Sequence record: MN850590.1
Length of the DNA: 64,000 nt
Direction: 5' to 3' (one strand)
DNA from: Escherichia phage moha
Part shown: in pieces, positions 17,419-53,022 of the stretch
Layout: each line of letters starts with the position of its first letter
Numbering within the stretch: position 1 is the first letter of the stretch
The notes under the pieces: model-generated
Told to the model about the DNA's origin: nothing
Database searches by the model: none
The model's input: only the letters and a program-made list of their open reading frames with translations
Program-made: the position numbers and the translations under genes

Positions 17419-18054
17419 ATGAAAACTACTCCTATTACTATCGCTATTGACGCAATCGTAAAACAAGCTTCTTCTTTGGCTACTATGGCCAAAGTAATTA
17501 GTCAAAACCCTGCTCGTTATAATGCTATTCTAGAAACTCTTCGACGCCCAGGACTTAGCAATTATGAAAGCCGAGTAATTATTACAGGTGTTGGTAAGAA
17601 TGCTAATATTGCAACTAAAGCTTCTGAGACATTTGCTTCACTCGGTATCCCAAGTATGTACTTGAACACCGGGCATTATTCTCACGGTGATGCAGGATTC
17701 ATTGCGCCTAATGATGTGTTGATTCATATTAGTCGTTCTGGTAAGACCGAAGAAATGATAGGTGTTGCTAAACATCTTCGTATGATTCGTCCGAACGTCA
17801 AACAGATTCTGTTGCATTGTAACCCAGACATTCCACAAGAAAATGAAGCCCTTTTTGATTACTCTTTCTGTACAGGCATCGCAGTAGAGGTTGACGAGAA
17901 CTCTTTAGCTCCGACTATGTCTACTACATTGTTGTTAGCGCTTATCGATACGTTTGCTATCAACCTTTCGTCTGAGCGTGGATTTACCTCTAATGACTTC
18001 CTTAAGTTCCACCCTGGTGGTGCACTAGGTGCCATGTTACGAGGCGAACAATGA
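17419..18054 (+). CDS. SIS-domain sugar-phosphate isomerase (KdsD/GutQ-like arabinose-5-phosphate isomerase, no CBS domains)
   Basis: ITGVGKNANIA, HISRSGKTEE, LAPTMSTT, HPGGALG blocks co-linear with KdsD SIS domain. Confidence 0.8.
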   Translation: MKTTPITIAIDAIVKQASSLATMAKVISQNPARYNAILETLRRPGLSNYESRVIITGVGKNANIATKASETFASLGIPSMYLNTGHYSHGDAGFIAPNDVLIHISRSGKTEEMIGVAKHLRMIRPNVKQILLHCNPDIPQENEALFDYSFCTGIAVEVDENSLAPTMSTTLLLALIDTFAINLSSERGFTSNDFLKFHPGGALGAMLRGEQ

Positions 18055-18194
18055 AAGCAATAACAATAGGACTTTTACTATTGATGCTTGTCATGACTAT
18101 CTACTGGAGCTTAACAGCTCCAGTAATGATTCCAACACTTGTAATTGGATGGATTATGATTGGACTACAAGCAAAGTATGAATGCTTTAACTAG
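18051..18194 (+). CDS. Hypothetical 47-aa hydrophobic peptide
   Basis: ATGA overlap with SIS gene stop; hydrophobic throughout; below ORF-track cutoff. Confidence 0.25.
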   Translation: MKAITIGLLLLMLVMTIYWSLTAPVMIPTLVIGWIMIGLQAKYECFN

Positions 18195-50021: not shown

Positions 50022-50285
50022 ATGAAATTTAAATTTTTCTACGCAAAACATAAAGTAACAGGCGAATTTGTTTCAATGTACAACACTGCAGATGACGAAG
50101 GGATGATTTATACCCATTTGGGTCTATCTCATTGGGACTCAGACGTGCCTTATATGTCATCTGAAGCCGAAATAACTCGTTTAGTTAACGGACATATGAA
50201 CGACCATTTTAGTGTTATTCTTTCTAAAGACCTTAAAGAGGTTATCAACAAAGGATATATGGAACTTGCGGAAGTTGAGATATGA
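50022..50285 (+). CDS. Hypothetical protein
   Basis: 87-aa ORF with AGAGGA RBS. Confidence 0.5.
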   Translation: MKFKFFYAKHKVTGEFVSMYNTADDEGMIYTHLGLSHWDSDVPYMSSEAEITRLVNGHMNDHFSVILSKDLKEVINKGYMELAEVEI

Positions 50286-50474
50286 GCTCTAAAATGTGGA
50301 TCGGAATATGGTTGCTTAGTATCCCTATGATTTGTATAATATTTTCAATTGCATTGAGGTACTTATGAAAAATGCACTTATTGTATTAAGAACAATTTGT
50401 GATACGGGTTTTTACATTGCATGTTCGTTCACTGGAACATGGATGGCTTTAACATATTTTAATGTAATTTAATT

Positions 50475-50809: not shown

Positions 50810-51256
50810 ATGTCCAAATATTTAACTCGTAAAGACCTTCTGGCAGTTGGCGGTGAAGTTGTTGCAGTAGTTCGTAATGGCGAATACGGTTCTGAAGTTT
50901 CTAAAGAGTTTCGTTCTCGTGAAGGTTTTTACTTCTTCGTTAAAGGTTCATCTGATTGGCGACAAGTAGCAGCACGATTCTTTGTAGGACGTCAACGTTC
51001 TAAACAAGGGTTGGATGCAATTCTTTCTCACATTCGTCAAGGCCGTTCGCAACTAGCCCGTACCATGGGCACTAACAATATTGAATATGATGTAATCTTT
51101 GTTGCAGCTAAGAACATGAAACCACTGACCACTGGTTATGGTAAAGGTCAATTGGCTCTGGCATTCACTCGCAATCATACATCAGAATATCAAACACTCA
51201 CCGAAATGAACCGTCTTCTGGCCGATAATTTCAAATTCATTCTGCAGAGTTACTAA
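50810..51256 (+). CDS. Hypothetical protein, possibly Ndd-like
   Basis: 148 aa; position between rIIB and 52; Ndd assignment from weak recollection only. Confidence 0.4.
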
Positions 51257-51308
51257 TTTATACGGACCTATTAAGTTGGGCCTTTAATTTATTTTTGAGG
51301 TAATTAAA

Positions 51309-51455
51309 ATGGTAGCATGGATTATTGCATTGCTGTGTTGGTCGTTTTTATTCGTTAACACTTTAGTTACGGGCGAAACAACAGTATTTCAACAGGCCGT
51401 ATCACAAGGTACCTTAGCGGTCTTAGCTCTTATTAACGTGTTAAAAGGCGAGTAA
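51309..51455 (+). CDS. Hypothetical 48-aa hydrophobic peptide
   Basis: Single TM-like segment; below ORF-track cutoff. Confidence 0.3.
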   Translation: MVAWIIALLCWSFLFVNTLVTGETTVFQQAVSQGTLAVLALINVLKGE

Positions 51456-51595
51456 TGATTAAGAAAATCTTAGCAGGAGCCTTCGGGCTCTTGTTGTTGC
51501 TTACGGTTCTGTACTACGGTGTGATGTTTGGACTAATCCAAGTAGTGCTTTTCATTTCAGATGTTATAATGGTTATTCGTTCATTAATATGGTGA
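51455..51595 (+). CDS. Hypothetical 46-aa hydrophobic peptide
   Basis: taATG overlap with previous; hydrophobic. Confidence 0.3.
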   Translation: MIKKILAGAFGLLLLLTVLYYGVMFGLIQVVLFISDVIMVIRSLIW

Positions 51596-51599
51596 AAAT

Positions 51600-52925
51600 A
51601 TGCAATTGAATTCTCGTAATCTAAAAAGTATTATTGATAACGAAGCCTTAGCATATGCGATGTACACCGTTGAAAACCGTGCAATCCCAAACATGATTGA
51701 TGGATTTAAGCCGGTTCAACGTTTTGTGGTCCATCGTGCGTTAGATTTGGCTCGTGGTAATAAAGAAAAATTTCATAAACTTGCGTCAATTGCAGGCGGT
51801 GTTGCAGATTTAGGTTATCACCATGGTGAATCTTCTGCACAAGATGCAGGTGCATTGATGGCTAACACATGGAACAACAACTATCCACTGTTAGATGGCC
51901 AAGGCAACTTTGGTTCTAGAACAGTCCAAAAAGCTGCAGCATCTCGTTATATTTTTGCTCGTGTAAGTAAAAATTTCTATAACGTATATAAAGATACTGA
52001 ATATGCTCCAGCTCATGAAGATAAAGAACACATTCCACCAAAATTTTATCTTCCTATTATTCCGACAGTTCTTTTGAATGGCGTCTCTGGTATTGCAACC
52101 GGTTACGCAACAAATATTCTGCCTCATAGTTTTAAATCAGTCAAAAAGGCTGTATTACAAGCTCTTCAAGGTAAAAATGTCACTAAGCCAAAAGTTGAAT
52201 TCCCGGAATTCCATGGCGAAGTACATGAAGTTGATGGGCGTTATGAGATTCACGGAACATATAAGTTCACATCTCGCACTCAAATGCAGATAACTGAAAT
52301 CCCATATAAATTCGACCGTGAAACGTATGTGAGTAAGGTTCTTGACCCATTAGAAGATAAAGGTCTAATCTCATGGGAAGATGATTGTGGTGAACACGGC
52401 TTTGGGTTTAAGGTGAAGTTCCGTAAAGAGTACTCGCTTCCAGATGACGAAGAGCTACGTCATGAAAAAATCATGAAAGATTTTAGTCTCATCGAACGTC
52501 GTTCACAAAACATCACAGTGATTAATGAAAAGGGTAAATTAGCGGTCTACGATAATGTAGTAGACTTAATCAAAGATTTTGTTGAAGTCCGTAAGACTTA
52601 CGTTCAGAAACGTATTGACAACAAAATCCTTGAATCTGAAAAAGCATTTAAACTGGCTTTTGCTAAGGCGCACTTCATCAAAAAAGTTATCAACGGTGAA
52701 ATTGTGATTCAGGGCAAGACTCGTAAAGCTTTGACTGAAGAGCTAGCACAAATCGAAATGTATAAAGAACATGTCGATAAACTGGTAGGTCTTAACATCT
52801 TCCATATCACTTCCGACGAAGCACGTAAACTAGCAGAAGAAGCTAAAGCTAAGAAAGAAGAAAATGAGTATTGGAAGTCTACTGATGTTGTGACAGAGTA
52901 CACTAAAGACTTGGAGGCACTTTGA
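51600..52925 (+). CDS. 52: DNA topoisomerase II medium (GyrA-like) subunit gp52
   Basis: 441 aa; GyrA-like N-terminal block RAIPNMIDGFKPVQR; T4 synteny. Confidence 0.9.
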   Translation: MQLNSRNLKSIIDNEALAYAMYTVENRAIPNMIDGFKPVQRFVVHRALDLARGNKEKFHKLASIAGGVADLGYHHGESSAQDAGALMANTWNNNYPLLDGQGNFGSRTVQKAAASRYIFARVSKNFYNVYKDTEYAPAHEDKEHIPPKFYLPIIPTVLLNGVSGIATGYATNILPHSFKSVKKAVLQALQGKNVTKPKVEFPEFHGEVHEVDGRYEIHGTYKFTSRTQMQITEIPYKFDRETYVSKVLDPLEDKGLISWEDDCGEHGFGFKVKFRKEYSLPDDEELRHEKIMKDFSLIERRSQNITVINEKGKLAVYDNVVDLIKDFVEVRKTYVQKRIDNKILESEKAFKLAFAKAHFIKKVINGEIVIQGKTRKALTEELAQIEMYKEHVDKLVGLNIFHITSDEARKLAEEAKAKKEENEYWKSTDVVTEYTKDLEAL

Positions 52926-53002
52926 GTGCCCTAGCCTTAGGATTTCTCGGTGCAATAGCTGTACTAGTGATTTGGCTGTATTGGTTGGACAAACATGATT
53001 AG

Positions 53003-53022
53003 GGAGCTTCGGCTCCTTTTTT
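53003..53022 (+). terminator. Intrinsic terminator after gene 52
   Basis: GGAGC-TTCG-GCTCC followed by TTTTTT. Confidence 0.75.

Follow-up and report, generated by a model that had tools for sequence, protein, structure and literature searches.

The window, by which we mean the whole 64,000-nucleotide stretch of Escherichia phage moha DNA analysed here, carries two short open reading frames, ORF1 and ORF2, between ndd and gene 52. The 901 bases surrounding them showed 98-99% DNA identity to more than 150 genomes of Mosigvirus, the RB69-like T4-type phages, and Mosigvirus JK42 and NicPhage are 99% identical relatives of the window, which itself belongs to Mosigvirus. The annotated order in Shigella phage JK42 is rIIB, DenB, several small hypothetical genes, nucleoid disruption protein, acridine resistance protein (Ac), a hypothetical protein, topoisomerase II medium subunit and MotA. 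The gene order of T4 is ndd-stp-ac-52.1-52, and that of the window is ndd, ORF1, ORF2 and gene 52, all on the same strand, with the following features:

50810-51256, plus strand: ndd, nucleoid disruption protein, 148 aa (Pfam Phage_T4_Ndd, 296.7 bits; phrog_1102; annotated ndd in JK42).
51257-51308, plus strand: ndd-ac spacer, 52 nt, at the site occupied by stp in T4 and lacking stp here; it carries the ORF1 Shine-Dalgarno element GAGG at 51297-51300.
51309-51455, plus strand: ORF1, ac homologue of "type B", 48 aa (phrog_2501; annotation in JK42, APCEc01 and mar005P1).
51445-51457, plus strand: ac/52.1 coupling junction, read from the sequence, with AAGG inside the 3' end of ac, the TAATG overlap and the 52.1 start.
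51455-51595, plus strand: ORF2, gp52.1 homologue (DUF7396), 46 aa (PF24129, phrog_3595).
51600-52925, plus strand: gene 52, DNA topoisomerase II medium subunit, 441 aa (phrog_551, E 4e-217; Pfam DNA_topoisoIV).

ORF1 runs from the ATG at 51309 to the TAA at 51453-51455 and encodes a 48-aa protein, MVAWIIALLCWSFLFVNTLVTGETTVFQQAVSQGTLAVLALINVLKGE. ORF2 runs from the ATG at 51455 to the TGA at 51593-51595 and encodes a 46-aa protein, MIKKILAGAFGLLLLLTVLYYGVMFGLIQVVLFISDVIMVIRSLIW. The last A of the ORF1 stop codon is the first A of the ORF2 start codon (TAATG, a 1-nt overlap, GAGTAATGATT), and a gap of 4 nt separates the ORF2 stop from the gene 52 start at 51600. Together the two frames occupy 287 of the 343 nt from the ndd stop to the gene 52 start. 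Both proteins are hydrophobic, with GRAVY values of 1.22 for ORF1 and 1.86 for ORF2. The first-pass annotation had described two overlapping hydrophobic mini-ORFs of 48 and 46 aa upstream of gene 52, and its coordinates, lengths and taATG overlap proved exact.

Inspection of the sequence placed Shine-Dalgarno-like elements 8 nt ahead of ORF1 (GAGG, 51297-51300) and 6 nt ahead of ORF2 (AAGG, 51445-51448). A third such element, GGTGA at 51591-51595, lies 4 nt ahead of gene 52 and overlaps the end and stop codon of ORF2. The genes ac, 52.1 and 52 are a tightly packed string, each with its own Shine-Dalgarno element, in a non-essential early region. The junction between ac and 52.1 is an 8-nt overlap in T4, Klebsiella phage Roth19 and TH57, as against 1 nt in the window. 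The 52-nt spacer replaces stp, which in T4 lies between ndd and ac and encodes a 26-aa activator of host PrrC; no stp-like sequence and no second Ac copy was found anywhere in the 64-kb window. The spacer (51257-51308) gave no match to a sigma-70-type promoter or to a terminator. The nearest sigma-70-type promoter candidates are upstream of ndd, and the window ac and 52.1 are probably transcribed from promoters located there. MotA-type middle promoters were assessed by eye only.

We examined how readily frames of this kind arise by chance. In 20,000 shuffles of the 343-nt interval, one ATG-initiated ORF of at least 46 aa was present in 11.5%, and two in tandem were present in just 0.04%. The first figure shows that a lone ORF of this size is common in AT-rich sequence and would suit a reading of both ORFs as chance open frames within a non-coding spacer upstream of gene 52, as would the deposited Mosigvirus records in which ORF2 is not annotated and a predicted terminator is placed inside it. 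The second figure stands against that reading, as does conservation across the 38 sampled loci encoding gp52 relatives, each taken with up to 2 kb of upstream sequence. This sample also took in T4, JK42, a Klebsiella phage, Yersinia phage PST and a Gaprivervirus, and all plus-strand ORFs from ndd to gene 52 were listed for every locus. Both frames were retained in Tequatrovirus, Mosigvirus, Gaprivervirus, Klebsiella-phage and other gene-52-related loci, so that the frame conservation among relatives which the first-pass annotation had named as its check is found across T4-like genera. The frames persist between genera, where synonymous sites are saturated and pN is low, both ORFs match curated families, and ac was defined genetically in T4. 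There was no Rfam match, and the ndd-ac spacer had no significant RNA fold. We give the chance-frame reading virtually no credence, and because of the conservation tests we consider it already refuted.

An RNA element in place of coding sequence was also considered and rejected, with no Rfam match and with a spacer hairpin no better than those of shuffled sequences (z -0.51). The record of one relative carries ARNOLD "terminators", including one within ORF2, and our own terminator scan gave them no support. In the record of phage KAW3E185 (L044, MK373782.1) the 52.1 ORF is omitted and an ARNOLD-predicted terminator is annotated within it at 978-991. Deposited Mosigvirus annotation is inconsistent at this locus, with ORF2 often absent and ORF1 often "hypothetical". 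ORFs that fall below the ORF-track cutoff in the window can be real genes.

ORF1 matched phrog_2501 over its full length (residues 1-48, E 2.4e-22). T4 Ac matched the same family (E 2.2e-25), and the CRISPRi-ART table also files T4 ac there. Direct BLASTP comparison of ORF1 with T4 Ac gave an E value of 1e-7 at 34% identity, and no model in the Pfam copy used was matched by either protein. The counterpart of ORF1 is named "acridine resistance protein" in JK42, APCEc01 and mar005P1, a misleading name because the wild-type gene confers sensitivity. ORF1 showed the build of an Ac protein, namely a length of about 47-52 aa, an N-terminal hydrophobic helix, a polar loop, a second helix and a glycine equivalent to T4 G38. 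T4 Ac (51 aa, P18924) resembles ORF1 in its PHROG, its position between ndd and 52.1/52, its size class, the Trp of helix 1, the polar loop and the second helix, and in both cases the stop overlaps the 52.1 start. The glycine whose change to arginine (G38R) inactivates T4 Ac is present in ORF1, with T4 Ac G38 aligned to ORF1 G34; the G38R change gives T4 acridine resistance (2025 preprint). The two differ at the C-terminus, where ORF1 ends in KGE with a 1-nt overlap and T4 Ac ends in SND with an 8-nt overlap, and ORF1 has no stp upstream.

The Ac relatives fall into two subtypes, A with the T4-type loop IDASSVFSQALAQG and B with the window-type loop TGETTVFQQAVSQG. T4 has A only and the window has B only, while Yersinia phage PST (L042, NC_027404.1) carries tandem Ac paralogues at 883-1038 and 1049-1204, upstream of 52.1. 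The PST record annotates the B copy as "ac" and leaves the A copy and 52.1 unannotated. Ac showed weaker constraint and faster evolution, with pN of about 0.45 against pS of about 0.6-0.8, and a recognisable core was kept in the helix 1 Trp and the loop SV(F/I)xQAxxQG. To judge from these alignments, Mosigvirus Ac is a divergent and distinct subtype, and the functional data come from T4/T2-type (A) alleles only. A literature search for acriflavine or acridine sensitivity of RB69 or other Mosigvirus phages returned nothing.

ORF2 scored 79.9 bits with the Pfam family DUF7396 (PF24129), whose cut-off is 27, over model positions 1-46 of 46. It matched phrog_3595 with an E value of 9.7e-23, the PHROG to which the CRISPRi-ART table assigns T4 52.1, and is about 72% identical to T4 gp52.1. 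The protein begins with MIKK, followed by about 41 consecutive hydrophobic residues. The motifs of gp52.1 (YYG, LFISD(V/A)I and a C-terminal SLxW) are all found in ORF2, and the frame lies directly upstream of gene 52. Y20, Y21 and G22, the run L32, F33, I34, S35 and D36, and the C-terminal W46 are invariant in the closer gp52.1 relatives. T4 gp52.1 (46 aa, P18922) is like ORF2 in its full-length family match, its length, its position 4 nt upstream of gene 52 and these invariant residues. It differs in the N-terminal hydrophobic segment, which has diverged (ILAGAFGLLLLLTVL in ORF2, ILGYSLALAALLVAL in T4), and at residue 42, which is R in ORF2 instead of H.

Comparison of the window with T4 gave pS of 0.73 and pN of 0.18 for the whole of gp52.1, and pS of 0.60-0.65 with pN of 0.05-0.06 for residues 20-46. 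Low pN together with high pS means that it is the protein, not the DNA, that selection acts on, and conservation through an overlapping nucleotide element is thereby excluded. By this measure purifying selection on the C-terminal half of gp52.1 is strong.

Except in the most distant loci, gene 52 was directly preceded by a 52.1-type ORF of 44-46 aa. The distant loci (L025-L029, L033, L034, L036 and L039) lack 52.1 and carry other small hydrophobic ORFs or none, and in L035 the 52.1 frame is disrupted. Wherever 52.1 is present, in every locus examined, gene 52 is the next gene and begins after a gap of 4-72 nt. Ten loci (L008, L010, L018, L020-L024, L038 and L041) have 52.1 without Ac, and because of these loci we conclude that gp52.1 acts independently of Ac. 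An exhaustive profile search of 1.84 billion representative proteins returned only nine gp52.1 members, all of them phage-type proteins of 45-46 aa or longer mis-called ORFs, and a word-index search returned close relatives only (12 for ORF2 and 4 for ORF1). Within the reach of these searches the gp52.1 family is confined to T4-like phages. No paper specifically on gp52.1 or DUF7396 was found.

These matches, with the gene order, show that the window carries, as ORF1 and ORF2, the Mosigvirus forms of the catalogued T4 genes ac and 52.1. Both genes are already known, having been in the T4 catalogue for decades, in UniProt (P18924 for Ac and P18922 for gp52.1) and in many annotated relatives; the first-pass annotation had not identified them as named genes. 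We infer translation of both from selection, and for ac from genetics as well.

The AF2 model of ORF1, computed from a shallow alignment (pLDDT 77), showed a hydrophobic helix at residues 2-21 and a less hydrophobic helix at residues 24-45, with a break at G22-E23 and the polar loop TGETTVFQQAVSQG between them. It agrees with the ESMFold model of T4 Ac in the 2025 preprint, which also has two helices. The AF2 model of ORF2 showed one continuous helix of 44 residues from 2 to 45 (pLDDT 97). Both AF2 models are of monomers without membrane context, and the modelled ORF2 helix could cross the membrane once, with an extension embedded in it, or fold back as a tight hairpin at YYG. The first-pass annotation had predicted one transmembrane helix in each peptide. 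The hydrophobicity behind that prediction was borne out. The single helix was not, with two AF2 helices in ORF1, and in ORF2 about 41 hydrophobic residues in one 44-residue helix that may be a span or a hairpin. A search of all PDB chains with the ORF2 profile gave no match.

Other hydrophobic mini-ORFs are present in the window. The first-pass annotation had pointed to a similar 47-aa hydrophobic ORF at 18051-18194 after the SIS gene. Such an ORF exists on the plus strand and is hydrophobic (MKAITIGLLLLMLVMTIYWSL...), and it is conserved as phrog_3610 (E 6.8e-27). Its similarity to ORF1 and ORF2 does not extend to sequence: homology among the three was sought by BLASTP and tblastn and none was found, and a shared composition alone is common. 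The 18051-18194 ORF overlaps the stop of the SIS-domain gene by ATGA, relatives annotate the SIS gene as arabinose-5-phosphate isomerase, and an NTP-transferase/kinase-like gene lies 3' of the ORF. This ORF and the genes next to it may form part of the Mosigvirus arabinosyl-hydroxymethylcytosine pathway.

Upstream of ndd, a 28-aa hydrophobic ORF at 50282-50368 (plus strand) overlaps the stop of the preceding gene, matches phrog_8851 "outer membrane protein" (E 1.9e-10) and is unannotated in JK42. A 36-aa ORF at 50362-50472 (plus strand), also upstream of ndd, matches phrog_18561 (E 2.6e-26) and is hypothetical in JK42. Downstream, at 52922-53002 on the plus strand, a hydrophobic ORF that starts with TTG encodes 26 aa (MSALALGFLGAIAVLVIWLYWLDKHD). 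It shares TTGA with the stop of gene 52, and a strong terminator-like hairpin at 53001-53018 marks its end. The ORF is kept only in close Mosigvirus loci, with a few amino-acid changes, has no PHROG match and is unannotated in JK42; T4 has motA.1 at this place.

For expression and dispensability we relied on the T4 orthologues. T4 ac and 52.1 are early transcripts, and neither Ac nor gp52.1 was detected by mass spectrometry (Class_P = NA). CRISPRi-ART in T4 scored ac and 52.1 as "Not Fit", meaning no laboratory fitness effect, and gene 52 as "Fit". Knock-down at the 52.1 start produced no gene 52 defect in T4, which makes strict translational coupling into gene 52 doubtful. The T4 deletion sa-delta-9 removes 52.1, ac, stp, ndd, ndd.1-ndd.6 and denB and yields about 50% of wild-type phage production. 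The same deletion abolishes the post-infection stimulation of phospholipid synthesis, phosphatidylglycerol included. By analogy with T4, we infer early transcription of ac and 52.1 in the window and an inner-membrane location of their products.

The T4 data bear on the roles that the first-pass annotation had put forward, those of holin modulator, exclusion factor or toxin-like protein. Small, hydrophobic, phage-encoded peptides would fit a part in lysis timing (as holin or antiholin partners), in superinfection exclusion or as membrane toxins, and early expression suits exclusion. The evidence gathered here points elsewhere. Searches of Pfam, PHROGs, NCBIfam and PADLOC placed neither ORF in a family of holins, antiholins, exclusion factors, toxins or defence-related proteins. 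Their neighbours are early nucleoid and replication genes (ndd, denB, gene 52 and motA) and not a lysis cassette, and the T4 orthologues are transcribed early, not late. T4 Ac alone is not toxic, with CFU in the absence of dye essentially unchanged, knocking down either ac or 52.1 in T4 leaves fitness unchanged, and the known T4 ac phenotype is dye sensitivity and accumulation, not lysis control. We therefore regard these roles as very improbable. For gp52.1, an exclusion-type, host-interference or anti-defence role is nevertheless conceivable.

A 2025 preprint describes the dye phenotype of ac. T4 Ac causes acriflavine to build up in the cell, and the dye inhibits wild-type T4. On acriflavine, delta-ac and point, insertion and deletion ac mutants of T4 gained about 10^4-fold in plating over the wild type. 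Induction of T4 Ac in E. coli cost ~3 logs of CFU on acriflavine compared with less than 1 log in controls, whereas without dye the induced strain reached 1.5e9 CFU/ml and the empty strain 2.3e9 CFU/ml. Induced T4 Ac also sensitised E. coli to ampicillin, which the preprint authors read as an efflux defect. They proposed that Ac in the inner membrane would obstruct AcrAB-TolC, and a PNAS 2026 paper repeats the AcrAB-TolC idea as an assumption.

In the mechanism that we propose, the N-terminal helix of the ORF1 Ac would insert into the host inner membrane soon after infection. Ac would then lower the barrier of the cell to planar cationic dyes, acridines would accumulate and phage development would be blocked, and loss of ac would give an acridine-resistant phage. 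Sensitivity to the dye probably arises as a by-product of a function in host-membrane takeover. Carried over from T4, action of Ac by interference with the efflux pump is a serious candidate, to which we give a little less than an even chance.

The classical Silver model differs in that Ac raises the inward permeability of the envelope to dyes and efflux is not blocked. Early work, as relayed by the 2025 preprint, describes greater acridine uptake by infected cells and lesser uptake by cells infected with resistant mutants, and a membrane change that is early and energy-dependent; the preprint itself gives no direct evidence for an Ac-AcrB interaction. These points favour inward permeability. 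Against it are the sensitisation to ampicillin by T4 Ac, read by its authors as an efflux defect, and the lack of toxicity of T4 Ac alone, which argues against a general leak. A two-helix peptide of 48-51 aa is also an unlikely pore unless oligomeric. Taken together, we find the permeability model possible but doubtful, and the remaining weight falls on other or indirect effects.

Pump interference by a peptide of this size can be compared with E. coli AcrZ, a 49-aa single-helix partner of the AcrB efflux pump that supports the pump and is present in PDB complexes. AcrZ and Ac are comparable in size and in helical membrane character, and both would act on AcrAB-TolC if the proposed obstruction is right. 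They differ in that AcrZ supports the pump and Ac would impair it, AcrZ has one helix and Ac has two, and the sequences have no detectable similarity. A phmmer search of all PDB chains with ORF1, at E values up to 10, returned three unrelated weak matches only and nothing AcrZ-like.

For gp52.1, the pattern of conservation suggests a small helical membrane protein that would bind a conserved host or phage membrane partner through its invariant C-terminal half (YYG...LFISDVI...SLxW). Binding of a conserved membrane partner through this half is the most likely reading of its function. A different reading is that gp52.1 serves gene 52, either as a membrane tether or assembly partner of topoisomerase II or as an upstream cistron that sets gene 52 expression. 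Where present, 52.1 always adjoins gene 52 on its upstream side and is the most constant member of a variable cassette, and the gene 52 Shine-Dalgarno element overlaps the 52.1 stop. T4 gp39 and gp52 were reportedly found to be membrane-associated in the 1970s, which would suit a tether. However, adjacency is weak evidence where synteny is generally strong, as in T4-like cores, and the more distant gene 52 loci do without 52.1. In T4, knock-down of 52.1 is "Not Fit" where that of gene 52 is "Fit", and deletions that remove 52.1 are viable. Selection on amino acids and not on nucleotides counts against a purely regulatory leader. A role in the service of gene 52 is, in our assessment, quite unlikely.

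The overall explanation that we favour is that ORF1 and ORF2 are ac and 52.1, that both encode early, small inner-membrane proteins, that Ac would account for the dye effect and that gp52.1 acts independently of it. We hold this explanation with high confidence.

Across the sampled loci (L001-L043), the content of the interval from ndd to gene 52 varies. It is a cassette of at most four tiny hydrophobic ORFs, often with stop/start overlaps, and 52.1 is its constant member. Its members include stp, phrog_5941 (57 aa), phrog_9347 (53 aa), Ac of subtypes A and B and 52.1, with others in distant phages. The products of stp, phrog_5941 and phrog_9347 are like ORF1 and ORF2 in their interval, in their size range (26-60 aa) and in being mostly hydrophobic, but the sequences are unrelated, and which of them occur differs from genus to genus, in contrast to the nearly constant 52.1. 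Stp is also unlike ORF1 and ORF2 in that it is soluble and acts on host PrrC, according to the T4 record annotation.

The cassette may be a set of fast-evolving, tiny inner-membrane proteins, each of which would disable or re-tune a different host membrane machine. The Ac subtypes would inhibit RND efflux (AcrAB-TolC), and gp52.1 would hit a conserved partner, a candidate being the basis of the phosphatidylglycerol stimulation that is lost in sa-delta-9. This wider picture is speculative and, taken as a whole, unlikely. Few 46-residue proteins of T4-like phages are as strongly constrained as gp52.1, and if Ac does inhibit a multidrug efflux pump, such small phage peptides would be of interest as efflux-inhibitor leads.
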